From: an uncultured Desulfospira sp.
GTDB taxonomy: Bacteria > Desulfobacterota > Desulfobacteria > Desulfobacterales > Desulfobacteraceae
Reading direction: 5' to 3'
NCBI GenBank assembly: GCA_963663165.1
Contig: OY760175.1
Location: 3,296,001-3,360,000 of the forward strand
Length of the DNA stretch: 64,000 bases
Shown one piece after another: positions 28,044 through 61,476 of this stretch; position 1 is the first letter of the stretch; every line of letters begins with the position of its first letter. The notes under the pieces were generated by a model. The model had not been told where the DNA came from, ran no database searches, and worked only from the letters and a program-made list of their open reading frames with translations. Made by a program: the position numbers and the translations under genes.

Positions 28044-28178
28044 AAACCGCGCAGCATTCGGTCTCCCGTTTCCTGTCTCCGTTACAACTTGTTTTTCAAG
28101 GCTTTCAATGCTAAATTTTAAGGATTGGTAAAGACCGGATATGACGTTTGAGGGGAAGTGAGGAGAACACGGGTTAAG

Positions 28179-31100: not shown

Positions 31101-31322
31101 CTGGACGGCTCCTGCGCCCCTTCCACCTGCGTTGAAGAGAGCAGAATCCTGCCGTTAAAGCAGATGGAGACCCAGCATATTCTGGCGGCCCTGTCCAGAT
31201 GCCGCGGCAAGGTCAGCGGTCCCAGCGGGGCGGCTGAGCTGCTTGAAATCAAGCCCACCACCCTGCATTCCAAAATGAAGCGGCTGGGCATCAAACGGGA
31301 CACCTTTCAGGTCGAAGCATAA
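28179..31322 (+). CDS. Large sigma-54 enhancer-binding protein (helical/TPR-like region, GAF, AAA+, HTH)
   Basis: GETGVGKD, GAFTGA, WPGNIREL, GAAELL HTH; GAF-like AERGAIFL...QAAVALAN; start 28158 or 28179. Confidence 0.92.
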   Translation: MGTIEEHFYAIDKESREIGLFTCLIPPPVSLDALCFITQYSPVKTLQVVEGFVKTGHLLRDDEKGAGYYCLSDVKRAPAWVGQFPPEELALAVDKAVKGLCRYYPDGAKRWLGLANVYQVSGLPVRHFKELIHAGHYCTELNLPAEAAVYYQMALEGMLEARTQLDPAEKEAFIDGAIGVCTCKDSALSPYVQRRFLGQALMFCRGRSEPAREIRLRTMVAKTYIKTDESDEAARQLKQAWDMLENAELSHELKIQVALAYSELLFWKGFVTRAIERYESVITDHEQLPNDVETLKGCIRLGWTYGVAGETARGLGLIRTVRNKARELGAKTLELYATLYMVILLSDAGRIEEGEVFLDEVFQAPEDQLDNYIRWPGNGKRAFFAYCRGDYEKSFYYLGQAWENSKALETPHQRGPDNLEFMLGLEELGMVHPEWNFDTEIERLLNWPDIYMKGVGYRFRALKSYRHHGPSDSVKDDLKKSLVLLTRAGAKIELSHAQVLMARVRLGEKNIQAAEKLLKSAWEVFSKVNPKLMPQDLQTYLDPASKNALWVDSLLQVGDALGSIRTRRELLGQIIKQAMRLAGAERGAIFLQQGRDLEIVATRNIETREISSNHFSLQMKVIKNVFKTGSEIIRKASLIQLAKNINQSPSGWTGCFPIQLKARTLGVLFMDCGLTRLQLPDDEVSLLRIICNQAAVALANLEAYEEILDLNNELEAETLSYRAPIEPGLVHTKMIGRTPPFEKMLGLIRQVAGSDSTVMITGETGVGKDLVAQAIHRHSKRSGGPFIAVNVVSLSPELIASELFGHEKGAFTGASGTRKGRFELASDGTLFLDDIDAFSLDIQAKMLRVLEAREFERVGGTRTLKTRFRLVAASNRNIEDLVDQGLFRSDFYFRLNVFPIRVPPLRERKDDIPLLGRYFMDKFCRKFEKKFDQISRKDLEMLMNYHWPGNIRELRHVIERAVLLSSNGRLVIPPLDGSCAPSTCVEESRILPLKQMETQHILAALSRCRGKVSGPSGAAELLEIKPTTLHSKMKRLGIKRDTFQVEA

Positions 31323-31325
31323 AAA

Positions 31326-31452
31326 TTCACGAAATAAAGTAACTTCACGAATTAATGGCAATACCGGCACCCATATCTTTTCGCCACTTATTCTGTAACC
31401 ATTCAATATTAAAAGTTATTTTTTTATTTTTAAAACTGGCACGGGTCTTGCT
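31326..31452 (+). promoter_or_regulatory. Sigma-54 promoter with upstream tandem UAS-like repeats
   Basis: TGGCAC-GGGTC-TTGCT at 31437-31452; TTCACGAA at 31326 and 31344. Confidence 0.85.
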
Positions 31453-31562
31453 CATACCAAGGGGCAGTTGGGTTGAGTGTTTTTGTTGAGTGTTTTTTTA
31501 TTAATCGTACATCGGACAGGATAGCCTGCCGGTTACACCAAATAAGTATGGAGGAAAGTTGA

Positions 31563-32930
31563 ATGGAGACTCATAAACCACCCTTAAAAAAATCCGTTAT
31601 CAATTTGTACGGATTGCCGTCGTTCGGGTTTAACCTTTTTGTCAGCATGGAAATCTTTTTCTTTGCTGCGTTTCTGACTGATTTTGCAAAAATTCCTGTG
31701 GCCATGGCCGGGACAGTGCTCATGATCACCAGTATTTTTGATATTGTCTGGGTGCCCACGGCAGGGGTGATCATCGAAAAAAGCAACATGCGCTGGGGCC
31801 GTTACCGTTCCTGGCTGCTCATCGGCCCGCCACTGGCCACACTCTTCTTCATCCTGCAATTCTCTAAAATCGGTGACCCCACCATGAACGCCGTCTTGAT
31901 TTGCGTGGGCTTCATCGTTTCTCACCTGATCTGGAACATTTTTTATGCCTCCCATATCGCAATGAACAACTCCCTGACCACTATCCGGGAGGAGCGAATC
32001 TCCATGGCATCCAACCGGGGCATGTTCAATGCCATCGGCGCCATTGCCTTTTCCATGGTCGGGGCCAAGACCATTGATCTGTTAGGAAACGGAGATAAGG
32101 CCATGGGATGCACCCTGACCGTTATCGCCGCCGGCATCCTGATGATCTTCTGCTACTGGGTCATCTTTGCCATGACCAAAGATTATGCCTATCATCCGAA
32201 AGCTGCCGGTACTTCTGAGGCTGCAAAAGCCGATAAAATGCCCGTTAGTGAAATGCTCAAACAAATCATTGTCAACCCGCCCCTGATTGGCCTTATGCTG
32301 GCGGAGTTAGGGCGGTACCTGGGACGGTTTATCATTTTCGGACTGGCCTTCTACTACTTTAAATATGTGGTTAACAGCCTGGCCTCTATTGCCATCTTCT
32401 TTACCGGCCTGAACGTGGTCTGTTTTTTCGGCGCCATGGCCACGGCCCCCCTGGCCAAAAAATTCGGCGAACGGAACACCTACATGCTGTCACTGGCCAT
32501 TTTCATTATCGGTTTGATGGCGGTCTGGATCATGCCCATGAACCATATGTCCTTTATGGTTGTCATGTTTGTGGCCTATCTGGGATACGGCATGCCCGAT
32601 GCCCTCAGTGTTGCCATGTATTCGGCCACCGTGGATTACGGTGAGTGGAAAACCGGGAAAAACGCCAGGGGATTTATCATGTCCCTGATCAGTTTCCCCA
32701 TTAAAACCGCTATCTTTGTCAGAAGCGTTGTGATCACCGGGATCCTCGTATCCGCCGGCTATGTGGCGGATATGGCGGCCACACCTGAACTGATTCAGGG
32801 GATCAAAAACGGAATCGCTTTGGTGCCGGCACTGTTTATCGGTGCAGGCCTTGTCATCATTCTGCTGCTTTACCGGATTACGCCCGAAAAGCTGCAGCAA
32901 ATGCAAGAGGAGATTGCCTCCCGTAAATAA
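31563..32930 (+). CDS. MFS transporter, glycoside-pentoside-hexuronide (MelB-like) family
   Basis: WGRYRSWLL, ERISMASNR, VDYGEWKTG; about 12 TMs. Confidence 0.9.
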   Translation: METHKPPLKKSVINLYGLPSFGFNLFVSMEIFFFAAFLTDFAKIPVAMAGTVLMITSIFDIVWVPTAGVIIEKSNMRWGRYRSWLLIGPPLATLFFILQFSKIGDPTMNAVLICVGFIVSHLIWNIFYASHIAMNNSLTTIREERISMASNRGMFNAIGAIAFSMVGAKTIDLLGNGDKAMGCTLTVIAAGILMIFCYWVIFAMTKDYAYHPKAAGTSEAAKADKMPVSEMLKQIIVNPPLIGLMLAELGRYLGRFIIFGLAFYYFKYVVNSLASIAIFFTGLNVVCFFGAMATAPLAKKFGERNTYMLSLAIFIIGLMAVWIMPMNHMSFMVVMFVAYLGYGMPDALSVAMYSATVDYGEWKTGKNARGFIMSLISFPIKTAIFVRSVVITGILVSAGYVADMAATPELIQGIKNGIALVPALFIGAGLVIILLLYRITPEKLQQMQEEIASRK

Positions 32931-32940
32931 GGCGGCTTAA

Positions 32941-32991
32941 GGGAAGCCTGATGCTTCAGGCAGGTTACCTAAGGACAGGCTTCCCTTTTTC
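32941..32991 (+). terminator. Intrinsic terminator/attenuator after the MFS gene
   Basis: GGGAAGCCTG...CAGGCTTCCC followed by a T tract. Confidence 0.6.
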
Positions 32992-33112
32992 ATCACTCGC
33001 GAAAGCCCAATTAACGAAAATATGACATAAAACCGCAAAAGGGCCCTAAGGCCATACAAAAATTTTATACCGGGGACCGTGTCCCCCCTGACAATACAGA
33101 AGGAGTAAACAG

Positions 33113-33916
33113 ATGATCATCATAGGAGAAAAGATCAATGGTGCCATCCCTTCCGTGGCAGAGGCCATTGCCAAAAAGGATGGTGAATTCATCAAAAACC
33201 TGGCCAAAACCCAATCTGATGCCGGTTCTCATTTTATTGATGTCTGTGCATCCACCGATGTCAAAATCGAACTTGAGACCATGAAATGGCTCATCGATCT
33301 GGTCCAGGAAGTCACTGACACCCCCATTGCCGTAGACAGCCCCGATGCCGGGATCTGTGCTGCGGCCATGGACTTTTGCAACAAGCCCGGCCTGATCAAT
33401 TCCGTATCCATGGAAGGGGACAAAATAGATGTGGTGTTCCCTAAAATCACCGGTACCAAATGGGAATGCGCGGCCCTGCTTTGCGATGACACCGGGATTC
33501 CCAAAACCGGAGAAAAACGTCTGGAAGTTTTTGAAGACATCATGAAAAAGGCCAAAGAATATAACATCGACCCTTCCCGCCTGCACATTGACCCCCTGGT
33601 AGAAATGCTCTGTACTTCTGAAGACGGCATCAATACCATTCTGGACGTGATGAAAACCATTAAAAAGCAATACCCCACCATCCACATCACCGGCGGGGCC
33701 AGCAATATTTCCTTTAACCTGCCGGCCAGAAAATTTGTCAACCAGGCCTTTCTTATCCTGGCCATGGGGGCCGGTATGGACAGCGCCATTATCAACCCCT
33801 TGCACAAACACATGATGGGGCTGATCTATGCCACCGAAGCCCTCAAGGGATTGGACGAGTACTGCATGGAATATATTAACGGATACAGAGACGGGCTGTT
33901 TGGCCCTGTAAAATAG
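33113..33916 (+). CDS. Methyltetrahydrofolate:corrinoid methyltransferase (pterin-binding, AcsE/MT2-like)
   Basis: MIIIGEKIN, AVDSP, LINSVS, IDPLV, GASNISFNLP. Confidence 0.92.
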   Translation: MIIIGEKINGAIPSVAEAIAKKDGEFIKNLAKTQSDAGSHFIDVCASTDVKIELETMKWLIDLVQEVTDTPIAVDSPDAGICAAAMDFCNKPGLINSVSMEGDKIDVVFPKITGTKWECAALLCDDTGIPKTGEKRLEVFEDIMKKAKEYNIDPSRLHIDPLVEMLCTSEDGINTILDVMKTIKKQYPTIHITGGASNISFNLPARKFVNQAFLILAMGAGMDSAIINPLHKHMMGLIYATEALKGLDEYCMEYINGYRDGLFGPVK

Positions 33917-33973
33917 TAGTCCGTTTGATGTTTAAAACGATTAACACATAAGCAAGATGTAAGGATATACAAC

Positions 33974-34612
33974 ATGTCTAAAATAGAAGAAGTCAAAACA
34001 AATGTGGAAAAAGGCAAAACCAAACTGGTCCCCGGACTGGTTCAGGAGGCCATTGATGAGGGGGATAAGCCCTCAGACATTCTCCAGGCAATGGTGGACG
34101 GTATGGGCGTGGTGGGAGACAAGTTTTCCGCCGGCACCATTTTTGTTCCTGAAATGCTGATCGCTGCCAAGGCCATGGCCAAAGGCGTTGAAATCCTCAA
34201 GCCCCTCATGGCCGGTGAAGACAGCGGACCCTCCCTGGGGACATGTATCATCGGAACCGTTCAGGGGGACCTTCACGATATCGGCAAAAACCTGGTGGCC
34301 ATGATGGTGGAAAGTGCGGGATTCAACATGATTGATCTCGGGGTGGACGTGTCTCCGGAAAAGTTCATCGACGCCATTAAATCCAATGAACACGTGACCC
34401 TGGTGGCCTGTTCCGGACTGTTGTCCACCACCATGCCGGCCTTGAAAGATACCGTGGAACAGATTAAATCCTGCGGTGTCAACGGATTTAAGGTGATCGT
34501 CGGGGGGGCCCCCGTGACCCAGGCCTTTGCCGATGAAATCGGTGCGGACGGCTATGCGGCGGATGCCGGCGGTGCAGCCATCAAAGCCAAAGCGCTTGTC
34601 ACCGCAGCCTAA
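33974..34612 (+). CDS. Corrinoid (B12-binding) protein
   Basis: FVPEML cap; GDLHDIGKNLV (DxHxxG); IVGGAP. Confidence 0.95.
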   Translation: MSKIEEVKTNVEKGKTKLVPGLVQEAIDEGDKPSDILQAMVDGMGVVGDKFSAGTIFVPEMLIAAKAMAKGVEILKPLMAGEDSGPSLGTCIIGTVQGDLHDIGKNLVAMMVESAGFNMIDLGVDVSPEKFIDAIKSNEHVTLVACSGLLSTTMPALKDTVEQIKSCGVNGFKVIVGGAPVTQAFADEIGADGYAADAGGAAIKAKALVTAA

Positions 34613-34636
34613 CTGAATAATAAGGAGGTTCACATC

Positions 34637-35614
34637 ATGTTGACCAAACGACAAAACCTGATTGAAACCATGAAAGGCGGGAATCCGGACCGGTTCGTCA
34701 ACCAGTACGAATTTATGGATATCATCCTGGAAGCACCGCGCAGAATTAAACCCCAGCCCGGGCAGACCATTGTCAATGAATGGGGCATTACCTACAGCTG
34801 GCCCAAAGACCAGTTGGGCGCATTCCCCGTGCATACCGAAGAACTCAAAGCACTTAAAGACATCACCAGGTGGAAAGAACAAATCAAGGTGCCTTCAGTG
34901 ATTTTCCCGGAAGATCAATGGGAGGCCGCCATAAAGCATGCCCGGTCCGTGGATAGAAATGACAAATACGTGGCCATCTTTTATGCCCCCGGTATTTTTG
35001 AAATGACCCATAGTCTTATGGGGATGGAAGACGCCATGATGGGGCTTTACGAAGAACCTGAACATATGGTCGAGCTCATTGATATGCTCTGTGAGTATGA
35101 AATTGCCCATGCCAAAGAGGTGGTCAAGTATCTTAAACCCGATGCCCTGTTCCACCATGACGACTGGGGCAGCCAGATCTCGTCTTTCATGTCCCCGGAT
35201 ATGTTTGAGGAATTTTATGTGCCGGCGTACAAGAAGGTCTATGGATTCTGGAAAGACAACGGGGTTGAGCTCATCGTCCACCACAGTGACTCCTACGCGG
35301 CCAACCTGGTGCCCTTTATGATTGAAATGGGAATTGATATCTGGCAGGGGGTGATGACCACCAACAACACCCCGGAGCTGATCAAGCAGTATGGCGGGCA
35401 GATCACCTTTATGGGGCAGCTGGATTCAGGGCCCTTGGACAACCAGGACTGGTGTGAGGAAGCCATTGAAAAAGCCGTGGAAAAAGTCTGCACCGAATGT
35501 GGTAAACAGTATTTCATCCCCTGCCTGACCCAGGGGCTTCATTTCAGCTCTTTCCCCGGCGTTTATGATGCCGCCACAAAGGCCATCGATAAAATGAGCA
35601 AAAAAATGTTCTAA
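34637..35614 (+). CDS. UroD-fold methyltransferase (substrate:corrinoid MT1, O-demethylase-like)
   Basis: HHDDWG, FMSP..FEEF, HHSD, GIDIWQG; operon with corrinoid protein and MT2. Confidence 0.8.
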   Translation: MLTKRQNLIETMKGGNPDRFVNQYEFMDIILEAPRRIKPQPGQTIVNEWGITYSWPKDQLGAFPVHTEELKALKDITRWKEQIKVPSVIFPEDQWEAAIKHARSVDRNDKYVAIFYAPGIFEMTHSLMGMEDAMMGLYEEPEHMVELIDMLCEYEIAHAKEVVKYLKPDALFHHDDWGSQISSFMSPDMFEEFYVPAYKKVYGFWKDNGVELIVHHSDSYAANLVPFMIEMGIDIWQGVMTTNNTPELIKQYGGQITFMGQLDSGPLDNQDWCEEAIEKAVEKVCTECGKQYFIPCLTQGLHFSSFPGVYDAATKAIDKMSKKMF

Positions 35615-36076: not shown

Positions 36077-37333
36077 ATGTTCAGAAAAAATATTGTTCTA
36101 AATTTTATTTTAATTGCAGGCCTTTGTGCCATGATGCTTCAATTTTACGGCTGCAGCGGAATGATGAAAGCAAACCATTTGATTGCGCAGGAAAAATATG
36201 ATGAAGCCATACCGGTCTTGAAAGAACAGATCGCCGAAAACCCGGACTCTGTCCAAGCAAAAAACAGGCTTGGATTTGCCTATTTAAAAACCGGCCGGAT
36301 GGATGAGGCCATTCAGGAATTTGAGGAGGTTTTAAATTTATCACCTGGCGAACCCGAGGCTGTTTTATACCTGGGAATGGCCTATCTGAATAAGGAAGAG
36401 CTGGACAAGGCCATAGACACCTGGCAGGGATACAGAAATGACAAAGCGCCCCTGGTAGAAGAAGAAATTAACCGCCTGATGACCATCCTGCTCATCGCCC
36501 AGAGTCAACAGTCGGCCAAGACAGCCATTGCACAGGAGTCTCAGCTGAGCGCTAAAAAGGCTGATGCCAATTCAATTGCCGTGTGTTATTTCAACGACCT
36601 TTCAGCAGACAAATCCCTGGGGGCTTTCCAGAAAGGCCTGGCCGCAATGGTCACCACAGATCTATCCAAACTTGGAAAATTTAAAGTCGTTGAGCGCCTG
36701 CGCCTTCAGGCGTTGCTGCAGGAAATGAAATTGGGACAAACCGGTATCGTTGACCCAAGTACGGCCCCGAGAATCGGAAAGCTTCTCGGCACCGAAACCC
36801 TGGTGACGGGGAACCTGTCTTTAGGCAGCATCCGGGTGGTCACCTCCTTGTCCTCCTCAAGCAGAGAAAAAGTGGTGGGATCTGCCAATATCAGGGTGGC
36901 CCAGGAAGATTTTTATAACCTGCCGGGACAGATTATCCAGAACTGTGCCGATATTCTCGGAATAAAGTTGAATGCCATGGAGCAGAAAGCCATCCATGTG
37001 CCCCATACAAAAGTTTATAAGGCGTTTATTCACTATGGCCAGGCCATTGATGCTTTGGATGCCGGGAAGTGGCAGGATGCCAAAAACTTTTTTGAAATGG
37101 CGTTAAAAGCAGACCCCAATTTCGATCTTGCCAAAATGGGAAGTGATTCATGTCCTGGACCTGCCGCACCTGGAGTGAATGCCATCAGCGCGATGACGGT
37201 TTCCAATATCGCACAACAGGCTGCGACTTCGGTCTCTACGGCTGAAGAAGCACAGGAAAGTGCGAATTCCGAGGCCAGCGGCTCCGGCGGGTTCGGCTCA
37301 AGCGACAGCGATGGCGGTGGAGGATCATATTGA
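36077..37333 (+). CDS. Lipoprotein with TPR repeats and CsgG/TolB_N-like domain
   Basis: Lipobox FYGC; TPRs (LGFAYLKTGRMDEA); IAVCYF...VVERLRLQALLQEM...RIGKLLG. Confidence 0.8.
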   Translation: MFRKNIVLNFILIAGLCAMMLQFYGCSGMMKANHLIAQEKYDEAIPVLKEQIAENPDSVQAKNRLGFAYLKTGRMDEAIQEFEEVLNLSPGEPEAVLYLGMAYLNKEELDKAIDTWQGYRNDKAPLVEEEINRLMTILLIAQSQQSAKTAIAQESQLSAKKADANSIAVCYFNDLSADKSLGAFQKGLAAMVTTDLSKLGKFKVVERLRLQALLQEMKLGQTGIVDPSTAPRIGKLLGTETLVTGNLSLGSIRVVTSLSSSSREKVVGSANIRVAQEDFYNLPGQIIQNCADILGIKLNAMEQKAIHVPHTKVYKAFIHYGQAIDALDAGKWQDAKNFFEMALKADPNFDLAKMGSDSCPGPAAPGVNAISAMTVSNIAQQAATSVSTAEEAQESANSEASGSGGFGSSDSDGGGGSY

Positions 37334-37453
37334 TCCCTTTTGTACCGTCAATACGGTTTTGATCATGAATATTTAACATAAAGGCAGGGCCGGTTGTTTC
37401 AAGGCCTTGCCTTAGACATCAGGCCTGTCAAGAAAAATAGAGGAGAGCTGTTT

Positions 37454-38173
37454 ATGAAAATTATCAGTAAGACTGTGACCATGGCAGTGATGGCCGTGCT
37501 TCTGGCAGCATCCGGATGGATCGATGCCGCAGGGGCGGGCACCGTCGGGTCCGGTAATACTGAGGGCGGCCAATCCGTTGAAACGCTGGCTATTTTACCC
37601 TTTGAAAATAATTCCGTGACTGACCCTGACCGATACGCTCCTCTGAGTAAGGGGCTTTCAGCCATGCTGATAACCGATCTTAACAAAAACGCGCCGTCCA
37701 TGAAGCTGATTGAACGCGGAAAGATAGCGGCCCTGTTAAAGGAGGTCGCCTTAAGCCAGAGCGGCGCCGTAGATGATTCCACCGCCGTCCAGGCGGGGAA
37801 AGTTTTAGGGGCCCAGTGTATTGCCTTTGGCTCATTTATGGTCATCGGCAAACAGGTCCGCATTGACACCAGGATCATCAAGGTTGAAACCTCGGCACTG
37901 GTGATGGCTGAATCCATCAGCGGAAAATGCAATGACTTTATGACCCTTGAGCAGGATCTGGCCAAAAAGATCGCAGACTCCTTCAACGTGGGGTTAAACA
38001 CGAAAGACATGAAGTCCGGCAGTGACATTGAAGCGGCGCTTTATTTCTCAGAAGGGCTGGACCTGCTGGATAAAGGGGACAAGGCCGGGGCCAAAAAAAT
38101 GTTCAAAGAATGTATTAAGCTGGATCCCGCTTATAAATCGCAAGTGGACAATGCACAGGGCCAAAAGCTATGA
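37454..38173 (+). CDS. Secreted CsgG/TolB_N/FlgO-like protein with C-terminal TPR
   Basis: Signal peptide; LAILPFEN, LIERGKIAALLKE, GKVLGAQ, RIDTRIIKVET; start ATG 37454 after AGGAG. Confidence 0.8.
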   Translation: MKIISKTVTMAVMAVLLAASGWIDAAGAGTVGSGNTEGGQSVETLAILPFENNSVTDPDRYAPLSKGLSAMLITDLNKNAPSMKLIERGKIAALLKEVALSQSGAVDDSTAVQAGKVLGAQCIAFGSFMVIGKQVRIDTRIIKVETSALVMAESISGKCNDFMTLEQDLAKKIADSFNVGLNTKDMKSGSDIEAALYFSEGLDLLDKGDKAGAKKMFKECIKLDPAYKSQVDNAQGQKL

Positions 38174-39300
38174 AAAAAATACTGTTAATCATCCTGTTTA
38201 TTATGTCTGCTTTTTGTTTGTCCACCGGGGTGCAGGCCGGTGATAAAGTTGTCGAGGCGGAAGGAAGCAGCGATTTATCCCGTGATGATGCGGCCCGGCG
38301 TGCCATGGTCGCTGCCGTGGAACAGGCCGTCGGGGTATTTGTTCATTCTGAGACTGAAGTGGAGAATTTTGAACTCAAAAAAGATAAAATCCTCTCCCGT
38401 ACACAGGGGTATGTTACCCGTTATGATGTCCTCAAGGAGTGGCAGCAGGACGGTGCTTACAATATCCGCGTAAAAGCCACGGTCTCTTTGGATAAGATCA
38501 AAGACGATCTGATTGCCATGAAAATTCTGCTGGACAGTATGGAACGGCCCAAGCTCATGATCCTGATTGAAGAAAAATATGTGGATATGGGTGATATGGG
38601 CATGCGGTTTGCCGAAACAGAGCTTTCCAATATGTTCGTGGCCAAAGGATTTGATCTGGTGGACAAAGCCCAGATTGAACAGATCCAGTCCATGGACCAG
38701 GCCCGCCAGGCCCTGGCCGGAGAAGCCGATGCGGCCAAACAGCTGGGGTTGCAGTTTGGCGCCCAGTATGTGATTCTGGGGAAAGCGGTTCTTCAGGATG
38801 CGGGGGAAGCTTATCCCGGCAGTGGTCTGAAATCAATTCAGGGCAGTCTTCAGGTAAAGGTTCTTCAAACCCATACCGGACTGATGCTGGGCTCTGCGGT
38901 TAAAACCGGCGTTGCCGCACATATCAGTCCGTTAACCGGGGCAACAAAGGCCATGAAGGATGCCGCCGGCAAAGCAATGGATGAATACCTGCTGGATACC
39001 ATTACCAATTCATTCCAGGATTTTCTCAACAACGGCTCCCCTTTGAAGCTTTATGTCTCCGGGGTTAAATCCTTTCAAACATATAAGCAGGTCGCCGCCG
39101 GTGTTGAATCCCTGGAAAAAATGGTCAGCAGTAAAAAGGACGGCTGGAATAAAGCCGGCGGCGTACTGGTTCTGGACCTTCGGTTTAAAGGCGTCAGTGA
39201 GGAACTGGCCGATCTCCTGGATGGAAAAAAGCTTGCTAAAGGAAGCCTTGAGGTCGTGGACCTGGCACCGGACCGAGTGGATTGCAATTATTTGGAATAA
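38170..39300 (+). CDS. Secreted protein with FlgT N-terminal-like domain
   Basis: VEAEG...AVEQAVGVFVHSETEVENF...GYV...VKATV; following domain with KGFDLVD, GAQYVILG. Confidence 0.7.
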   Translation: MKKILLIILFIMSAFCLSTGVQAGDKVVEAEGSSDLSRDDAARRAMVAAVEQAVGVFVHSETEVENFELKKDKILSRTQGYVTRYDVLKEWQQDGAYNIRVKATVSLDKIKDDLIAMKILLDSMERPKLMILIEEKYVDMGDMGMRFAETELSNMFVAKGFDLVDKAQIEQIQSMDQARQALAGEADAAKQLGLQFGAQYVILGKAVLQDAGEAYPGSGLKSIQGSLQVKVLQTHTGLMLGSAVKTGVAAHISPLTGATKAMKDAAGKAMDEYLLDTITNSFQDFLNNGSPLKLYVSGVKSFQTYKQVAAGVESLEKMVSSKKDGWNKAGGVLVLDLRFKGVSEELADLLDGKKLAKGSLEVVDLAPDRVDCNYLE

Positions 39301-39387
39301 TGGCGGCAGGCGTTTGTTCAGGTTGGCATGAAACAGACGCCTGCCCGGCGATATTGGTTTAACGTCAAAGGAAGTAAGGGACGTTTT

Positions 39388-39789
39388 ATGATCAAGTTGA
39401 TAAAAATTGTGAGTTTTCTCCTATTGGGTTGTCTTTATCTTTCCTGCACGGCTGCGGCTGGAACAAGCCGGTTCTCCAGCCCGCCTAAAACAGTAAAACC
39501 CATTCAATATGAAGTCAGTGATTTATCGGCCAATACCTTTTCAAACAACACCCTTTTGCACGTTTCAGGAAAAATCAAGAACACCTCTTTTTACCCCATA
39601 CAAGGATATGTCATCATTCGGTTTCAAGATATCGGCCATTCGAATCTGGGATATGTAGAAGCAGACTTGAATCAGAACCGCCTTTTGCAGCACAACGAAT
39701 TGGGCGACTTTGAAATCAGCGTCAACATTCAAAATGAACCCGATATCCAGTCTGTATCCGTAGAGTTTGTAAGCACCGTGGGCCGCTGA
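39388..39789 (+). CDS. Exported small beta-sandwich (FxLYD-like) protein
   Basis: Hydrophobic N-terminus; VSGKIKNTS...IRFQD; start 39328 or 39388. Confidence 0.55.
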   Translation: MIKLIKIVSFLLLGCLYLSCTAAAGTSRFSSPPKTVKPIQYEVSDLSANTFSNNTLLHVSGKIKNTSFYPIQGYVIIRFQDIGHSNLGYVEADLNQNRLLQHNELGDFEISVNIQNEPDIQSVSVEFVSTVGR

Positions 39790-39810
39790 CCCGGACATGT
39801 CATGACGTTT

Positions 39811-41307
39811 TTAGTGTTGAAATTTCAGGGATCGGTCTGAAGAAATTTTATACTTTTTGAGAATTCTTTCGTTGGATTCTTCTACCGCGGTTTTGTTTAA
39901 AACGATTTTAAAGCCTCGGATATCTTCAATCACATGATAATCCTCATCCCACTGCTCAAAAGCCCTTATCAAATCCTCAAGGGTGGCGATGGGCTGCCCG
40001 TTGACCTTTGAAATGATGCCGTTGATAAATTCATGATATCCGATATTGACATCATCGGGCAGGACCTGGGCCAGCATTACGATATCTTTCTGGCGTTTGC
40101 TGGGGACGCCGTTATAAAACAGGTTTAACAGTTCGGTGGGGGCATTTAAATAGAAGTCCCCGTCACCGCTGCCGTATTCGTAAAGGTAATTCATGGACAG
40201 TGCCTCAAACACCAGGCCGCCGATAATATAAAATTCCGGTTCTGTTTCGTATTGCCGGTAAGGAACAAGACGGCAGCAATGAAGGGCTTTGGTTAACGGC
40301 AGTGTGATGGACAGACGTTTTCCCTTTCTAAACACATCAAGAGAAACTGAATCGTTGATCTGCTTTTCCTGGATCACAAAGCCCAGATAGGTTCTTTCCC
40401 CTTTCCTGAATTCAATGGTACCGTCATTGTCAATATCAAAGTCATCAATTTTTAACAGCACATCACTGTCTTCAAGATACCCCAGGGCAGGCGAATTCGG
40501 ATAAATAGCGTTCACCAGAACACCGGTCTGGGTATCGCTCATTTGATAGAATTCCCTCATGTCCTGATTTTCCAGTTTCTGCATGGAGATTCCTAGTTCA
40601 GGAATGCCGTCCAGATGATTGTCGGCAATATCTTCAAGAAAATGGCGCACCACCGGAATGGGGATCATAAAGCCGATATTCTCCGTTTGAGGGCCATAAT
40701 GATTCTGGAAGGCAATGCCCGCAATTTTTCCATCTTTGAAAATAGGCCCCCCGCTGTTCCCATGGTTGAGGGATGCGTCCAGCTGGCAGGCGATCAGGTA
40801 AGATCCGGCATGTTTATAATTTTTATGCTCCACCCGTGAGACCACTCCCTTTGTAATGGAAAGTTTGTCTCCGCCTTCGGGAAACCCATAGGCATAGACC
40901 TCATCCTTAACCTGGGAAAACTCACCGAATTCGATAGGAACAATGCCTTTGAAAAAACCAGGATCATTCACTTTGAGAAGTGCCAGATCACTTTTATGAT
41001 CAATTAGATCAACCACTGCGGTATACCGCTTGGCCTGCCCTGATTTTCTGACCTGTAAAAATGTATTGTCGCAGACCACATGGGCGTTGGTAAGAATTCG
41101 ATTGCCGTCGATGATCACGCCGGACCCATGGCGTGAATTAATGCCTTTCATCTGCCAGGGTTCATGGTAGTTGTACTCATTAAACACCACATAAATTTTG
41201 ACAACGGTATCTTTTTCTCCGGCAAATACTGAGGCGGCGGGAATGGTGCTGCATACCATGAACCATGTCAGAAAAACCCATTTTAATCCGGCCATGGGGT
41301 TATTCAA
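39811..41307 (-). CDS. Deg/HtrA-like trypsin serine protease with PDZ domains, exported
   Basis: TNAHVV, SDLALL, GNSGGP triad; PDZ-like C-terminal half; signal peptide. Confidence 0.92.
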   Translation of the reverse strand: MNNPMAGLKWVFLTWFMVCSTIPAASVFAGEKDTVVKIYVVFNEYNYHEPWQMKGINSRHGSGVIIDGNRILTNAHVVCDNTFLQVRKSGQAKRYTAVVDLIDHKSDLALLKVNDPGFFKGIVPIEFGEFSQVKDEVYAYGFPEGGDKLSITKGVVSRVEHKNYKHAGSYLIACQLDASLNHGNSGGPIFKDGKIAGIAFQNHYGPQTENIGFMIPIPVVRHFLEDIADNHLDGIPELGISMQKLENQDMREFYQMSDTQTGVLVNAIYPNSPALGYLEDSDVLLKIDDFDIDNDGTIEFRKGERTYLGFVIQEKQINDSVSLDVFRKGKRLSITLPLTKALHCCRLVPYRQYETEPEFYIIGGLVFEALSMNYLYEYGSGDGDFYLNAPTELLNLFYNGVPSKRQKDIVMLAQVLPDDVNIGYHEFINGIISKVNGQPIATLEDLIRAFEQWDEDYHVIEDIRGFKIVLNKTAVEESNERILKKYKISSDRSLKFQH

Positions 41308-41596
41308 TCTGGATAAAGGGCTTCTTTAAGTGATTAATAAAGATGACGGATTCATGTTCTGATTTGATCAGTCGGCTGTATACGGTTTTTGTCTCGCCGG
41401 TGGCGGTATCAATTACAAATGCGCCCACCAGAGCGCCGCCGTCCACAGGGGCCGTGGCCCACGACTGGAGTTGAAACCGTCCGTAATGGGGTGGCGGCGG
41501 CGAGTTTACCGCACCAAGAAAAAGGATGCCAAGCACCGTCAGACCAATCCCAAGCATAAAATATTGAGCCGGTTTGTTAAAATTAGGGAATTTCAT
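41300..41596 (-). CDS. Small membrane-anchored hypothetical protein
   Basis: One TM segment; RBS AGGAAGG; overlaps the protease start. Confidence 0.65.
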   Translation of the reverse strand: MKFPNFNKPAQYFMLGIGLTVLGILFLGAVNSPPPPHYGRFQLQSWATAPVDGGALVGAFVIDTATGETKTVYSRLIKSEHESVIFINHLKKPFIQIE

Positions 41597-41621
41597 GGAA
41601 CCTTCCTAAAAAAAATATCCA

Positions 41622-42356
41622 TTATTTCTTTGCCTTTGCAAAATCATCTTTAGAGGCACCGAAACCCTGGACTTCAATCACAGCATCGGGAATGCCAAGG
41701 TCTTTTCCAAGGATATTGGTGGCGTCAGCCACATTAAGCACCATGTTCACGAAGGCATCTCCGTTTTCTTCCCATCCGTAATCAGAGACTTCTGCAAGGT
41801 ACAATGTTGCCAGCAGTTTGGTTTTGACAATATCGGATTTGAGCAGATAGTTATCAACGCTTGTTTTGGATTCAACCTGCATACCGACCAGTCGTTTGCC
41901 AAGTTCCTTGTAAGCGTCAATTTCCGCCGCCCTTAGTGCGGCAACGGCCCCGGCATTTTTCTGGGTTGAAGTCCCGTACCCGACACGCCTGAACACCTTA
42001 TTTCCCAGATTCATCTGTTCGCCGTCAATATTTTCCATGGACGAAAGTTGGACACAGGCTTCAACTTTGGCAATATCTTTTTTGGAATCATAAACGATAT
42101 TGGTATACTGTATATTTTTTATGAATCCTTCGGTTTTGGTTTCGGTCGTGCTTTGATAATTGGCTGCAATCATGTTTTCTACAGACTCAGTCGCCCTGAT
42201 TTTAAGTCCGTATATGGACTCCACCAAAGAACGGGATGCGACCGCTTTGGCGGCCATGATGCTCATCAGTCTCTTATTTCCCGCCAGGGCAGGCGAAAAA
42301 CAGCCGGATACCAGAACCGATACGATCAGCATCGTTATTGTCTTTTTTTTCATCAT
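41622..42356 (-). CDS. LPP20/FlgP-like exported protein (two LPP20-like units)
   Basis: AAKAVASRSLVESIYGLKI and ALRAAEIDAYKELGKRLVGMQVES; VLVSGC possible lipobox. Confidence 0.7.
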   Translation of the reverse strand: MMKKKTITMLIVSVLVSGCFSPALAGNKRLMSIMAAKAVASRSLVESIYGLKIRATESVENMIAANYQSTTETKTEGFIKNIQYTNIVYDSKKDIAKVEACVQLSSMENIDGEQMNLGNKVFRRVGYGTSTQKNAGAVAALRAAEIDAYKELGKRLVGMQVESKTSVDNYLLKSDIVKTKLLATLYLAEVSDYGWEENGDAFVNMVLNVADATNILGKDLGIPDAVIEVQGFGASKDDFAKAKK

Positions 42357-42394
42357 GAATGACTCCGCCTTCACTTAAATTGGTTACGCAATGG

Positions 42395-42682
42395 TTATGG
42401 GTTTTTCTTTTCTATATCCTCTGTTCTCGGTCCCGTTTCGATGGTTTTTTCTATAATTTTAACTTTGGGGCCGTTTTCCCCTTCTTTCACATGGGCTTTG
42501 TATTCAATGGTCCCATATTGGGGAATATCAGGAAATTCTTTAATAATATCCTTATTGAGCTGGTCTATATCTTCCACCCGTTGTTCAACATGTTCTTTGT
42601 TGCCGGCCCAAAGCGTCATGGAAAAAGGGCCGGTAGCCAGAACAAAAATCAGGGCCATGATAAATGAGCGATATTTTCCCAT
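42395..42682 (-). CDS. Small secreted hypothetical protein
   Basis: Signal peptide MGKYRSFIMALIFVLATGPFSMTLWA; starts 5 bp after the upstream stop. Confidence 0.65.
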   Translation of the reverse strand: MGKYRSFIMALIFVLATGPFSMTLWAGNKEHVEQRVEDIDQLNKDIIKEFPDIPQYGTIEYKAHVKEGENGPKVKIIEKTIETGPRTEDIEKKNP

Positions 42683-42686
42683 GGAT

Positions 42687-44039
42687 TTACCATTCGTCAT
42701 CGCTGAGCATTCTTCCAATACCGGCTCCCGCTTTGATTGCCGGCTTGGGCTGGCTCTTGCTTCCAGGGGATGGCGCACTGGCCGCCGGTGGCGGTGGCTG
42801 GCTTTTGCTGGATGAAGAATAGGCTGGCGCACTGGTGGAGGCGGCCGCGGCACTGGTTGCTGATGGTGCCGGAGGACTTGATTCTACCGGCTGTTGAACC
42901 GTTCCGCCCGCCAGAAGATTGTTCAACTGATATCGCCGTGACAGGGCGGCTTCAGTGATGGGGATTTTTTCATATATGGTCATGAACGTCTTAAAATCAA
43001 CCGTACCCGATGCCGGTGAAAAAGAGGAAGAAATGGATTGAAAGGCCTTGATGGTGGCGGCATCAAGCTGGCCGCTCAAGGGCACGTTATGCCCGTATAA
43101 ATAGGCCCACTGCTGGGCCGCCATGATCTGCTCTGCCGGATTGATGCTGTGGTAATACCGTTTAATCTGCCTGACAACAACCGAATCCGGGGTGGTATCC
43201 TCTCCTAAAAGTGTCCAGTAGGGAAGTGCCAGGTACTTTCCAACCATCTGGATCATGCTGACTTCCACGAGCACCCGGACGGCGGCATGCCGGCCCTGGA
43301 CCTTTTTAACTGACCCCTTTGATCCAAAGGTAGGGCCAAACAGGGTGATGCCGAACTCTTTTTCCTGAAGCGCTTTGCGGACCTCCATACTGTTGATGGT
43401 GTTCATCCGGGGGATGCCAGCCATGGTTTTAAAATCCAGCATGTTAAAATCCAGGGTAATTCTGGCCAGTCCCTGTTTTTCGCTGTCACTGTAATTCAGG
43501 CCCACAGACCCGCTCGGGGTAAAGCTAGGGGCGTTGCTGAAGGTGGCATCCACGCCAAGATCCGTCCCCTCTCCTCTGGTTTCAAGGCCCCGGTCAAATT
43601 CCGTGATCCCCCCGCTGATCACCACCTCGGGAATCAGTTTATCTGAGAAGTCCGAATACCCTGTCACGTTCATGTTCTGGATATAGGCAGGATCGTAGGG
43701 GATATACCGGATATTGCCGCCGATGGAGTTCAGGGCGCTTTTCAGTATTTCTGTAATATCCCGGGGGATTTCCCCCCCTGTTGCCCCGGATGTTCCCGTG
43801 TTGTCCCCGATGGGGTCACTTTGTATTTTCAGCTCTCCCGTATCAAAAATTTCGGTCATCAAACCCAGATCAATCAACGTTTCTGTGTAAGATGTCATTT
43901 TGACTTCAGGACTTGATTCCTCCAATTGGACATTCACTTTGGTTGGCGAAGAGACGCACCCGCTCATTGTTATGCTGATAAATACGACGCATAGTCCTAT
44001 TATCAGCCGCCCTTCCAGCCTTCTAAATCCTTTCATCAT
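42687..44039 (-). CDS. CsgG/HfaB-like outer-membrane lipoprotein with peptidoglycan-binding-like segment and Ser/Pro/Ala linker
   Basis: Lipobox MSGC; IGDNTG, EILKSAL, VISGGITEFD, RITLDFNMLD; SGQLDAATIKAFQ. Confidence 0.7.
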   Translation of the reverse strand: MMKGFRRLEGRLIIGLCVVFISITMSGCVSSPTKVNVQLEESSPEVKMTSYTETLIDLGLMTEIFDTGELKIQSDPIGDNTGTSGATGGEIPRDITEILKSALNSIGGNIRYIPYDPAYIQNMNVTGYSDFSDKLIPEVVISGGITEFDRGLETRGEGTDLGVDATFSNAPSFTPSGSVGLNYSDSEKQGLARITLDFNMLDFKTMAGIPRMNTINSMEVRKALQEKEFGITLFGPTFGSKGSVKKVQGRHAAVRVLVEVSMIQMVGKYLALPYWTLLGEDTTPDSVVVRQIKRYYHSINPAEQIMAAQQWAYLYGHNVPLSGQLDAATIKAFQSISSSFSPASGTVDFKTFMTIYEKIPITEAALSRRYQLNNLLAGGTVQQPVESSPPAPSATSAAAASTSAPAYSSSSKSQPPPPAASAPSPGSKSQPKPAIKAGAGIGRMLSDDEW

Positions 44040-44166
44040 AATTCGCTCCTCAGTCCGACCTTGTTTTAATTGTAATATTGAGGTTTTTCACTAGAACCCA
44101 GACCAGCTATTGTGTTTCGCAAGGGTGTCCCAGGCTGAAATAACAAATGACCCGTTCATAAGAAGC

Positions 44167-44502
44167 CTAATCGGCAACCAGGGTTTTATTCCCCTTACTG
44201 TCGTCAATAATGATAATGTCACCCTTGACGGTACTGCCGGCCCCCATGACAACACTGTTCATGTTTGCGGATTCTGCGCTGCTGCTACCGGTCATGGAAT
44301 CTGCGTTGGTTTGGGCTTTGCTGCGGGCATTCATCTTAATGAAAGTGACGTTTCTATCCTTTTTCCCCAACTCGTCGTATTTTTGAATGGAGTCGTCTGT
44401 ATAAGTTGATATCCCGTCATCAAGATCCCCACTGACAGCAACAACCGGTGCCAGGAATTGAAGCAGGCAAAAAAACATGATTAAAATTTTGATGGATTTC
44501 AT
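44167..44502 (-). CDS. Small secreted protein with one degenerate copy of the 36-aa repeat (candidate minor/nucleator subunit)
   Basis: Signal peptide MKSIKILIMFF...; SANMNSVVMGAGSTVKGDIII vs TANMGSVNVKDSNVKGAVIN; RBS GGGAGG. Confidence 0.75.
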   Translation of the reverse strand: MKSIKILIMFFCLLQFLAPVVAVSGDLDDGISTYTDDSIQKYDELGKKDRNVTFIKMNARSKAQTNADSMTGSSSAESANMNSVVMGAGSTVKGDIIIIDDSKGNKTLVAD

Positions 44503-44522
44503 TTCAAAATCCTCCCTTATTT

Positions 44523-44612
44523 TATAAGAAAGTCCCACTAACAACTTAAAAAGACTTTCAATATCTATTGCGGACGCTGCTTGGTTGAATAACCACGGCG
44601 GCCCGTGGCCGT
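44523..44612. repeat. 90-bp structured intergenic repeat, single copy
   Basis: TATAAGAAAGTCCCAC...GCCCGTGGCCGT; aligns with the copies at 54181 and 61194. Confidence 0.85.
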
Positions 44613-44801
44613 TATAAACTATCAACGGTAGGCCTGTGACTCACCGTTGAACTGCAGGTATCAAGCCACAGGCCCTGAACTCAAGAAAACGGCCCCAGGG
44701 CAAACAAGCCATAACAGGATTCAGCAGAAAGGCGGTACAAAAACCGATCTGCTGAACCCCTGAATGCTGCTGCCCTGATAATCCGTACAAGTCTGCGCTA
44801 A

Positions 44802-45626
44802 CTATTTGATATCCACAGACCCCATGTTGGCGGTGTTGCCTTTGCCACCGGCAATGTTGGCCGCATTTTCAACATTGGACTGATTGATGACCGCCCCTTT
44901 GACATTGGAATCCTTGACACTGACGGATCCCATGTTGGCGGTATTGTCCTGTCCAACAGCAATGTTGGCCGCATTTTTAACATTGGACTGATTGATGACC
45001 GCCCCTTTGACATTGGATCCCTGGACATTGACAGATCCCATGTTGGCGGTATTGCCCTGGCCTGCGGCAATGTTGGCGGCGTTTTTAACATTGGACTGAT
45101 TGATGACCGCCCCTTTGACATTGGAATCCTTGACATTGACAGACCCCATGTTGGCGGTATTGCCCTGGCCTGCAGCAATGTTGGCCGCATTTTGGACATT
45201 GGATTTATTGATGACCGCGCCCTTGACATTGGATCCCTCGACATTGGTAGACCCCATGTTGGCGGTATTGCCCTGGCCTGCAGCAATGTTGGCCGCATTT
45301 TTAACATTAGACTGATTGATGACCGCCCCTTTGACATTGGAATCCTTGACATTGACAGACCCCATATTGGCCGCATTGTCCTTTCCAGCAGCGATGTTGG
45401 CGGCATTTTCAACATTGGACTTGTTGATTACGGCGCCCTTGACATTGGAGTCCTTAATTTTTACAGATCCCATGTTGGCGGTGTTGTTATCTCCCACAGA
45501 AATGTTGGCGGCATTTTTAACGTCGGATTTGTTGATAACAGCGCCTTTGACATTGGATTCCGCCAGTAAAGTACCCGGCAGCATGACAAACAACGCGATT
45601 AATGACAGTGCAAAAACGTTTTTCAT
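44802..45626 (-). CDS. Secreted repeat protein, 7 x 36 aa (candidate functional amyloid / beta-solenoid fibre subunit)
   Basis: Sec signal (~22 aa), then seven tandem SNVKGAVINQSNVKNAANIAAGQGNTANMGSVNVKD-type repeats (108-bp period); RBS AAGGAG. Confidence 0.9.
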   Translation of the reverse strand: MKNVFALSLIALFVMLPGTLLAESNVKGAVINKSDVKNAANISVGDNNTANMGSVKIKDSNVKGAVINKSNVENAANIAAGKDNAANMGSVNVKDSNVKGAVINQSNVKNAANIAAGQGNTANMGSTNVEGSNVKGAVINKSNVQNAANIAAGQGNTANMGSVNVKDSNVKGAVINQSNVKNAANIAAGQGNTANMGSVNVQGSNVKGAVINQSNVKNAANIAVGQDNTANMGSVSVKDSNVKGAVINQSNVENAANIAGGKGNTANMGSVDIK

Positions 45627-46044
45627 GATTCTGATCTCCTTTAATTATTAATTGTGGCCGGTATCGGCCTTTTTCAGTCTTGCAATAAAAAATCAATCCA
45701 CCTTCAATATTTATCTGCATCCTGAAAATCGTCTCTATAATCTCCAATTCACAATCAACGTCTTGATAAATATTTAATATTCAGTTGCTTTCCCCTGATG
45801 GTGTCTGTATGCTTTATACAATCAAGCTCACGGCAACCCAAAATCAATAAAAAAAAACGAACGAGGACAAATTAAAAAACAGCTATGCATCCCAAACGAT
45901 CATCGTTTCGCTCAAAAAAAATTTTCATAATTACATAATGATCATCCTAAATAATTCATAAGCGAATGTAAATAAAAAAAGGATAAATTGTGAATAAATT
46001 GTGAATAAAAAATAGATAAACTAGGGACAAAATATGGAGATAAA

Positions 46045-46782
46045 ATGAAATACCGAATTAAAAACAGAGTGTTGCTCATTTTACAGCTTATTTTTATCAG
46101 CAGTCCGGTATGGTTTCCGGTTGCTGCATCCGGCGCCCAAGCGCTTGAGAACTCAACAGGATATCAACTTAGCAGCACCAACCTGGTCCGTACAGATTGT
46201 CTTCAGGGCAACGGAATCCTTAAAAAAGAGAATAGAACCCCCGGTCCGTTCAACAAGGTACACATCAGCGGTGTTTTCAATGTTAAGATCATGCAGCAGG
46301 CCGACCCTTTTTTTGAAATATCCGCAGACGCCAACCTGATTTCAAACATCGAGACCCGTGTTATTGATGGCCAGCTGCAGATTTCTTCAAAAGGCTCTCT
46401 TTGCCCCAAACTGCCCGTCAAAATACAGATCGGTCTGCCCGAACTTGTGGCGCTGCAAGGTGTGGGTGCTGATGATATCAGCGTTTCAAATTTGGATAAT
46501 CAGCAGTTTTCAATCCAGATGGATGGCAGCGGCGATATCAGGGTGACGGGCCGCACCAGAGAATTTCAGGTCATGATGGATGGCGCAGGCAACCTTGATG
46601 CGGGCCAATTCAAGGCCGGCAACGTCTCTATCCGCTCTTCAGGTGCCGGGGATGCACAGATTTTTGCAATAGAAAAAATAGACGCTTATATAGACGGGGC
46701 CGGGGATATCTCACTCCATGGGCAGCCTGAAAAAGTGATTTTCAACTCAGATGGGGTAGGAGAATTAATCCGGGCGGATTAA
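46045..46782 (+). CDS. Exported GIN/DUF2807-like beta-helix (adhesin-head) protein
   Basis: GNGILKKENR, ISADANLI...IETRV, repeated GSGDI/GAGNL/GAGDA/GAGDI. Confidence 0.85.
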   Translation: MKYRIKNRVLLILQLIFISSPVWFPVAASGAQALENSTGYQLSSTNLVRTDCLQGNGILKKENRTPGPFNKVHISGVFNVKIMQQADPFFEISADANLISNIETRVIDGQLQISSKGSLCPKLPVKIQIGLPELVALQGVGADDISVSNLDNQQFSIQMDGSGDIRVTGRTREFQVMMDGAGNLDAGQFKAGNVSIRSSGAGDAQIFAIEKIDAYIDGAGDISLHGQPEKVIFNSDGVGELIRAD

Positions 46783-53998: not shown

Positions 53999-54180
53999 CC
54001 TGTGTCGGGGTCAAATCAGGGCAATGGCATGCACCTGCTGACGGTTTGATAAGACGGTAGGGATCAATGTATGGAAAGGCGGCCGAAAACGGAAGGAAGG
54101 AAGAAAGGAAGCTGGCAACGGGAGACCGGATTTTGCCAATTCCTAAGCGTTGTGCATCCGGTCTCCGGTTCTCTTGGATT

Positions 54181-54360
54181 TATATGAAAGTCTCACTAAC
54201 AGGCTGAAAAGACTTTCATTTTTCGTTGTGGACGGTGCTTGGTTGGATAACCCAAGCCGTCCGTGACGGTTATATGAAAGTCTCACTAACAAGCCGAAAA
54301 GACTTTCATTTTTCGTTGTGGGCGGTGCTTGGTTGGATAATCCAAGCCGTCCGTGACGGT
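54181..54360. repeat. Two tandem copies of the 90-bp structured repeat
   Basis: Units 54181-54270 and 54271-54360 nearly identical. Confidence 0.92.
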
Positions 54361-57690: not shown

Positions 57691-58440
57691 ATGAAACATA
57701 TTTTATTCGGTCTGACGCTGATTGCTGGAATTCTCGGTTTATGGGGACTTTCCTTTGCCGCTTCCTATTCCGGGATTATCTATGACACCCCGGGCGCCAA
57801 TGATATCTATGGAAACCCCGATACCTATGACGTCTATGCAATGACGGTGGATTATTACAGTGACGGGGATCAAAACTATTTGAAAGTGGTGATACTCACC
57901 GATTATGATACTTCAAAAGATTCTCAAACAACCTATGGTGATTTATTTATCAGTATTGACGGCAATAACGGCTGGGATTATGCCTTTGATGTAAGCGACT
58001 CAACGCTTTACAACATCAGCAGTGCTTCAGACCAATACATCCTCACCGCCAATGAATACTCTGACCAGTACAAATACAATTGGGACACAGCGGGGTATAG
58101 ACCCGATGCGGTGGTTTTGGTGGTCCCTGATCCCGACGGCGATGGTGGCATTTCCCCCCTGGTGAGTATCAGTGATGACTCCGACGGATCAACAGTGGTT
58201 CATGCGTCGGCGACAAACAGCACCCTCTATCAATACACCTATACCATGACAATCAACGTGACCGGTGTGGATGAATTTAATCCGGATAATTTCGACCCGA
58301 CCCAGCTTTACCTGTACTGGACCATGACCTGCGGCAATGATATCATTGAAGGCACCCCCGAAGCCGTTCCGGTACCGGCCAGTATCAGCCTTTTGGCATT
58401 AGGCTTAGCCCTGGTCATAAGCCGCAGGAGAAGCTTCTAA
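57691..58440 (+). CDS. PEP-CTERM/VPxP-CTERM exosortase-target surface protein
   Basis: Signal peptide; Asp/Tyr/Thr-rich; WTMTCGND; VPVPAS-TM-RRRSF. Confidence 0.9.
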   Translation: MKHILFGLTLIAGILGLWGLSFAASYSGIIYDTPGANDIYGNPDTYDVYAMTVDYYSDGDQNYLKVVILTDYDTSKDSQTTYGDLFISIDGNNGWDYAFDVSDSTLYNISSASDQYILTANEYSDQYKYNWDTAGYRPDAVVLVVPDPDGDGGISPLVSISDDSDGSTVVHASATNSTLYQYTYTMTINVTGVDEFNPDNFDPTQLYLYWTMTCGNDIIEGTPEAVPVPASISLLALGLALVISRRRSF

Positions 58441-61263: not shown

Positions 61264-61374
61264 TCCAAGCCGTCCGTGACGGTTTATAAGAAAGTCTCAG
61301 TAAGGTCCTGAGAAGACTTTCAATATTTGTTGTGGGCGGTGCTTGGTTGGATAACCAAAGCGGCCCGTGGCCGT
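61194..61374. repeat. Two tandem copies of the 90-bp structured repeat
   Basis: Units 61194-61283 and 61285-61374. Confidence 0.9.
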
Positions 61375-61476
61375 TATATAATGTATTTATAATCCCTACC
61401 GGGAGAACGTGGCCATACGCCTCCCGGCAGGGATCATTTTAACCGCCTGCTGAAACTCCGTCCGGCTCCCAGGCCC

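Follow-up and report, generated by a model that had tools for sequence, protein, structure and literature searches.

The 64,000-nt window analyzed here, from a sulfate-reducing bacterium, an uncultured Desulfospira sp. (contig OY760175.1, positions 3,296,001 to 3,360,000), contains a convergent group of genes at positions 36077..46782, which raises the question of whether this locus encodes a secretion system for a functional amyloid and, if so, of which type. A preliminary description had proposed a Fap-like repeat subunit paired with CsgG-like export proteins. The source genome is a single contig with a completeness of 96.7%. On the basis of sequence comparisons and structure models, we consider it fairly probable that the locus encodes a type VIII-like (curli-like) secretion and assembly module that makes amyloid-like fibers from a new repeat family. 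The module itself is real and conserved; apparently, neither this CsgG-type secretion module nor its new repeat family has been described before.

First, the gene arrangement was mapped. All genes and coordinates previously assigned were recovered in the map of open reading frames (ORFs). Seven genes form a minus-strand string that begins with the repeat gene (45626) and ends with a Deg protease gene (39811); this string converges on four plus-strand genes, and a GIN/DUF2807 gene at 46045 diverges from the repeat gene. The conserved core consists of three minus-strand genes, which encode the major repeat subunit (44802..45626; 274 aa), a small secreted partner (44167..44502; 111 aa) and a CsgG-fold lipoprotein, the channel candidate (42687..44039). 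Genes and their products are designated below by one of their boundary coordinates. The closest named locus, also from an uncultured Desulfospira sp., shares 97% identity in the channel protein.

The 45626 protein is composed of a signal peptide and seven ungapped 36-aa units without a cap domain. In the gene, Tandem Repeats Finder detected a period of 108 nt in 6.9 copies (85% match, score 969). The mature chain is basic, with a net charge of +9, contains 21% Asn and has zero aromatic residues and zero Cys. The repeat was without a convincing family, with compositional noise being returned by profile searches against Pfam, NCBIfam and the PDB, and neither Fap nor curlin families matched it in these searches. 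A short Asn-Ile-Ala-Ala-Gly stretch presumably recalls FapC repeats. The ESM Atlas returned unnamed clusters only, all below 0.9. Pentapeptide-repeat matches were discarded as compositional because the period is 36.

A single-sequence AlphaFold2 (AF2) model of the 45626 protein predicted a beta-solenoid in which each repeat forms one coil, and the best of five models reached a predicted local distance difference test (pLDDT) value of 89.8, with the other four ranging from 80.8 to 50.9. With this solenoid, Foldseek found no match at E 0.001. In VIA, curli CsgA was nominally first (Z 13.4; root-mean-square deviation (rmsd) 8.5), tied with SufB-type and PfbA beta-helices (Z 12-13). FapC gave a Foldseek E of 0.033 with a template modeling (TM) score of 0.08, and was missing from the 50 best matches of a second fold search; this absence does not exclude a Greek-key cross-section like that of FapC. 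As only the repeat length agreed with Fap and no Fap family matched, the label "Fap-like" was dropped. Homologues of 45626 carry whole numbers of repeats (2, 4, 7, 8, with giant paralogues reaching about 30). Their repeats start directly after the signal peptide, and most full-length copies end in register, 17-18 residues past the last motif. Judged by the single-sequence model and by whole repeat counts without terminal domains, the 45626 protein is predicted to be an open-ended, uncapped beta-solenoid monomer, a trait of functional amyloids. According to the part of the source that was available, solenoids with open ends and no capping domains polymerize, while capped ones do not (PMC10192328). 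Together with the uncapped architecture, this points to head-to-tail assembly of the 45626 subunits.

Several variants of the repeat genes were observed. In locus L003 (8588-9408), the major repeat gene is broken into two overlapping frames in the assembly, by a sequencing error or a frameshift. Loci L010, L012 and L014-L018 show an alternative gene order, with channel and accessory genes first and repeat genes after them, and possess an additional giant repeat paralogue, about 650-1170 aa in length, with mixed 35/36 spacing. A divergent subtype (L062, L144-L146, L151-L153, L160) encodes two distinct repeat subunits, one of which is rich in Thr/Ser in its N-terminal region; a FlgP-like gene was not detected in these loci. 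Furthermore, FecR-domain proteins (P0010, P0012-P0016) carry two or three copies of this 36-aa repeat at their C-terminal end, and related sites are L162:1498-2376 (G530), G526:C70:5193-5756 and L009:6666-7097. One full-length copy is unlinked in a carrier genome, another carrier has a partial match, and within one operon a FecR gene comes after the GIN gene. The FecR-repeat proteins are possible cargo subunits.

A stem-loop (44695..44778, minus strand) lies directly 3' of the major repeat gene, and the 121 nt after the stop codon fold at z -4.0. The 90 nt 3' of the major gene reached z <= -2.5 in 15 of 16 loci, as compared to 1 of 16 upstream windows and, as a control, 4 of 83 windows 3' of other operon genes. 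Not included in the 16 loci are a near-identical strain, loci in which the gene is absent or truncated, a locus containing a run of N, and L061 and L062. The stem-loop is probably an mRNA-stabilizing or partial terminator element. Since it is conserved after the major gene, the major subunit may be made in excess, and the position of the element suggests an abundant structural subunit. Scans of the locus for sigma-70 promoters and terminators remained near shuffle expectation. The sigma-54 pattern did not occur upstream of the window's repeat gene; good sigma-54-type sites were present upstream of the repeat gene in two of 16 loci (L009 and L008, with 0 and 2 mismatches). Regulation seems to vary by lineage.

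The small partner 44502 has a conserved acidic N-terminus and a C-terminal degenerate part-repeat of weak likeness. Its family comprises 162 homologues, none of them annotated, and no relatives were found in viral contigs. A hidden Markov model (HMM) of a single repeat gave a borderline score for the 44502 protein (8.0 bits, E 3.4) and scored 109 of 120 partner homologues, against 40 shuffled and 8 reversed copies. Profile-profile alignment of the major subunit and the partner with hhalign was negative (probability 0.2). The 44502 product had been described as a one-repeat small secreted protein; it is small and secreted, and its repeat likeness is borderline. It is a candidate nucleator, cap or anchor.

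The CsgG fold of the 44039 protein had been set beforehand as a test of the proposal. The Pfam CsgG profile matched at E 0.0019, below the cut-off. With the AF2 model (pLDDT 90.7), the ten top Foldseek hits were all CsgG (best E 2e-10), and VIA placed CsgG at Z 14.0 (rmsd 3.3, 183 residues aligned), followed by the next fold at Z 10.5. Thus, the fold was found as proposed. The N-terminal lipid-anchor Cys is nearly invariant across 120 aligned homologues. The model bears two long beta-hairpins with spans of 55 and 45 aa, the anchors of which were picked by eye, and both tips show hydrophobic/polar alternation in the 60 closest homologues, as expected of barrel strands. Downstream of the CsgG domain follow a peptidoglycan-binding-like domain (E 4e-4) and a Pro/Ser/Ala tail; Atlas neighbors carry PG_binding_1 and CsgG plus PG_binding_1. 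The wider family comprises 519 representatives at E 0.001. As judged from the model, 44039 is a channel candidate, i.e., a putative CsgG-fold outer-membrane lipoprotein with two barrel-type hairpins like those of the curli channel. When three channel cores were modeled together with the small partner and a piece of the major subunit comprising three repeats, the complex prediction gave a score of 0.02 and a mark of 0.32, which is evidence neither way. The correlation of channel and partner identities (Spearman 0.65) was dismissed as a sign of co-evolution, being expected from kinship.

In loci L064, L065 and L080, distant channel homologues (about 30% identity; fused to DUF4384 in some cases) adjoin further secreted repeat-like proteins, small or long, and these loci suggest a wider superfamily of such modules. 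The module also occurs on a 2.4-kb contig of an archaeal bin (L007), which groups with bacterial copies in a quick, unfinished tree with long branches; this contig is probably mis-binned.

Co-occurrence of the repeat gene with CsgG-like genes in other genomes, the second test set for the proposal, was found as well. Among 18 channel-anchored genome loci, the repeat gene and the small partner gene were each present in 16, the FlgP-like gene in 17 and the 98-aa gene in 15, followed by the GIN gene (9), the 39388 gene (9), the 95-aa gene (6) and the Deg gene (4). In this set, several misses lie at the ends of contigs, and a near-identical strain accounts for one locus. Among 401 genomes of the phylum, five encode a close channel homologue (E < 1e-140) and two a distant one; the repeat profile matched exactly those five, with repeat and channel genes adjacent in each. 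Secreted repeat-like genes were seen by eye directly upstream of distant channel homologues (G195, G222 and, from the family search, G432). In 80 metagenome loci anchored on the small partner, the repeat gene was upstream in 53 of the 62 having at least 400 nt there, and the channel gene downstream in 62 of the 71 having at least 400 nt on that side. Seven of the nine loci without an upstream repeat match were inspected, and all have divergent secreted repeat proteins at this position. Thus, fold and co-occurrence bear out the earlier view of a module that follows the logic of curli, with a CsgG-fold channel candidate, a major repeat subunit and its small partner, yet corresponds neither to canonical curli nor to Fap.

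The core is accompanied by accessory genes. A near-core FlgP/LPP20-like exported protein (41622..42374, minus strand) matched 9hmf (E 6e-4) and FlgP 8z5n (E 0.005) in phmmer, and one homologue exceeds the LPP20 cut-off. Despite its presence in 17/18 loci, the gene is absent from some lineages. The 42374 protein is a candidate for a periplasmic ring beside the channel. The second near-core accessory, a 98-aa protein with a hydrophobic N-terminus (41300..41596, minus strand; 15/18), had been called a small membrane protein and may instead have a cleavable signal peptide. Six of 37 members of its family touch Pfam CsgF (PF10614; best E 0.014), the copy in the window having no match, and CsgF was not listed for the family in a profile search against the PDB; weak relatives occur in 9 of 401 genomes without the module. 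This faint likeness to the C-terminal part of CsgF is a lead only. The small secreted 95-aa protein (42395..42682, minus strand; 6/18) is without a family and had no informative Pfam match. Among the variable accessories, the Deg/HtrA serine protease (39811..41307, minus strand; trypsin, PDZ and PDZ_3 domains) is also encoded in L060, L061 and L077-L079; its presence in only 4/18 loci does not support a role equivalent to FapD. A small exported protein (39388..39789, plus strand; 9/18) accompanies the core in shifting positions and orientations. The GIN/DUF2807 gene (46045..46782, plus strand; Pfam E 2e-31; 9/18) is divergent here and lies within the operon in most other loci.

The remaining plus-strand genes are neighbors rather than core members. 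These are a TPR and CsgG-clan lipoprotein (36077..37333), a CsgG-clan/TolB_N-like exported protein (37454..38173) and a FlgT-like/LipL46-like exported protein (38170..39300; FlgT_N E 0.0025). The first two, which the preliminary description took for export proteins of the system, match only positions 4-98 of 210 and 11-97 of the Pfam CsgG profile, respectively, and their hairpins span 11 + 15 aa and 13 + 15 aa, as compared to 55 + 45 in 44039. Since the hairpins are short and only half of the profile is matched, both are unlikely to be pores. Orthologues of the plus-strand genes stand beside the core in only one of the 18 loci plus close kin (G411, G474, G480) and in L087, and the export role was not retained. 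FlgT-like 38170 relatives occur in 5 of 121 family genomes, one of which (G468) is without a channel gene, and no relative was found at E 1e-20 in one genome carrying the channel gene. Since non-orthologous FlgT-like/CsgG-clan clusters recur beside the core (L004, L011, L060, L061, L077, L082, L084, L112), a loose functional link to the core is possible. Of the family labels assigned earlier, CsgG fold (44039), FlgP/LPP20-like (42374), FlgT-like (38170) and Deg/HtrA held, with the one-repeat label of 44502 being borderline.

Elsewhere in the window, a dispersed 90-bp repeat, for which BLAST gave 259 matches in the genome, occurs in tandem at 54180-54362 and 61192-61381, one copy overlapping the end of ORF 60616-61263. 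This ORF and 57691-58440 encode two exported proteins with similar sorting-type C-terminal tails, which we take to be PEP-CTERM/VPLPA-like. The region 28158-35614 encodes a sigma-54 activator and a major facilitator superfamily (MFS) sugar transporter (profile matches) as well as three genes that, labeled by eye, presumably represent a corrinoid-dependent methyltransferase set.

Which known system does the module resemble most? Like curli, it combines a CsgG-fold lipoprotein bearing two barrel hairpins with a predicted Sec-exported, Asn-rich, uncapped repeat solenoid of variable repeat number and a small partner gene adjoining that of the major subunit. It differs from curli in its 36-aa repeat, as compared to about 20 aa in curlin, in the channel candidate, which shares about 12% identity with CsgG and has the extra peptidoglycan-binding-like domain, and in the FlgP-like, GIN and Deg accessories. 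The curlin repeat (PF07012) gave 0 matches in the genome of the window and in 23 other carrier genomes, most of them incomplete assemblies; neither CsgE nor CsgF was matched in the genome, and the E. coli controls were positive. With Fap (FapABCDEF of Pseudomonas), the module has in common a repeat length in the range of 35-40 aa, a single coil for each repeat, Asn-richness and, in some operons, a protease gene, whereas linkers are missing, a sequence match or a clear fold match to FapC was not obtained and the repeats number 2 to about 30 instead of three. In profile searches, none of the 12 proteins of the locus was a FapF-type barrel or a C39 protease (FapD). With PF13557, which we take as a proxy for FapF, two barrels were found in the genome, about 0.4 and 1.7 Mb from the locus. 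In the parts of the sources available, FapC repeats are 35-40 aa long (PMC12392863), and FapB/C almost always carry three imperfect repeats with linkers (PMC12822426). The module is curli-like in design but, by profile, falls outside curli as well as Fap and Hfa. No description of the repeat or channel family was found in the literature covered; subscription papers and supplements, survey tables of which could list such loci, lay outside its scope. One paper reportedly concerns phage csgGF. For deltaproteobacteria, the available part of PMC3521004 names only canonical curli.

The curli-like reading is based on signal peptides, the CsgG-fold lipoprotein with its hairpins, the uncapped solenoid, tight linkage and the stem-loop. 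Under it, the major gene would be expressed in excess over the downstream genes, and the subunits would pass the inner membrane via Sec and remain unfolded. As an oligomer, the 44039 lipoprotein would form a beta-barrel in the outer membrane that is tethered to peptidoglycan, and the FlgP-like protein would take the place of CsgE as its periplasmic partner. The small partner may seed, cap or anchor the assembly, and the subunits would stack head to tail via the open repeats at their ends to give a cross-beta, amyloid-like fiber on the surface, acting in adhesion or as biofilm matrix. Deg, where present, may clear subunits accumulating in the periplasm. A further proposal, which we regard as tentative and rather doubtful, is that of a third secreted functional-amyloid family beside curli and Fap in anaerobic sediment bacteria, with a wall-anchored CsgG-type pore, a flagellar-type FlgP ring brace and the repeat as a C-terminal cargo tag, the latter because FecR-domain proteins end in such repeats in carrier genomes.

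Several points weigh against fiber secretion. The genome is without a curlin, CsgE or CsgF match, and no experiment on any family member was found in the literature. The solenoid was modeled from a single sequence with a wide pLDDT spread over the five models, and its fold matches are unspecific, CsgA being tied with SufB and PfbA beta-helices that do not polymerize. The CsgG/TolB_N fold is also found in non-secreting rings (FlgT, PelC, TraT), and CsgG/HfaB-family proteins also serve polysaccharide anchoring (available parts of PMC6707917 and bioRxiv 2021.05.19.444899). The compared loci are related, so that the counts are not independent and are descriptive only. In addition, the control windows of the stem-loop comparison frequently extend into the following gene, which weakens this contrast.

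The main rival, which we consider unlikely, is a holdfast-anchor-like device, in which the same channel would export repeat protein and partner as short oligomers or rods tethering a polysaccharide or adhesin, not as long fibers. In the available parts of the sources, the CsgG-like HfaB of Caulobacter exports the amyloid-like HfaA and HfaD as an anchor (PMC6707917), and an Acinetobacter CsgG-family gene affects poly-N-acetylglucosamine (PNAG; bioRxiv 2021.05.19.444899). A CsgG-like lipoprotein with non-curlin, amyloid-like exported proteins is common to HfaA/HfaB/HfaD and the present module. The frequent neighborhood of the GIN gene, which is adhesin-head-like, and the basic mature subunit fit an anchor, and the giant paralogues could serve as single-chain rods. 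However, HfaA and HfaB (NF037934, NF037935) had 0 matches in the genome with positive Caulobacter controls, the major subunit here is multi-repeat, and polysaccharide synthesis genes such as those linked to the holdfast were not noticed by eye beside the core among the ORFs listed. The stem-loop, moreover, suggests a bulk subunit.

Still less probable is an envelope scaffold, in which 44039 and a FlgP-like ring would link outer membrane and wall like the flagellar FlgO/FlgP/FlgT outer-membrane rings, the repeat protein being a non-exported periplasmic rod or spacer. The peptidoglycan-binding-like domain, the FlgP likeness of the core-string protein 42374 and the recurrence of FlgT-like and CsgG-clan neighbors in several non-orthologous versions are in line with it. 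In contrast to such rings, the channel candidate has long, amphipathic, pore-type hairpins as in CsgG; a repeat number of 2 to about 30 poorly fits a fixed-width spacer, and in some lineages the repeat-partner-channel trio persists without FlgP-like and FlgT-like genes. No flagellar genes were present among the ORFs around the locus. A degenerate canonical Fap or curli system with subunits drifted beyond profile reach is very improbable: the 36-aa repeat length lies within the range of FapC (PMC12392863, available part), the 98-aa family shows the faint CsgF signal and CsgA was nominally first in one fold search, but the locus is without FapF-type barrel and C39 protease, the repeats are contiguous, linker-free and variable in number as opposed to almost always three in FapB/C (PMC12822426, available part), and the curlin profile, built on a repeat of about 20 aa, matches nothing in this genome or the 23 other carriers.

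Surveys of bacterial amyloid operons rely on curlin and Fap profiles, according to the available part of PMC12822426. Since these profiles miss the 36-aa repeat, the curli-like module would be invisible to such surveys. If fibers are made, the repeat protein would be a candidate component of the biofilm matrix in sulfate- and sulfur-reducing bacteria, and would provide a very regular 36-residue amyloid scaffold with a natural length of 2 to about 30 repeats. The divergent CsgG-type pore candidate with its longer hairpins would be of interest for the mechanism of secretion and for nanopore work.

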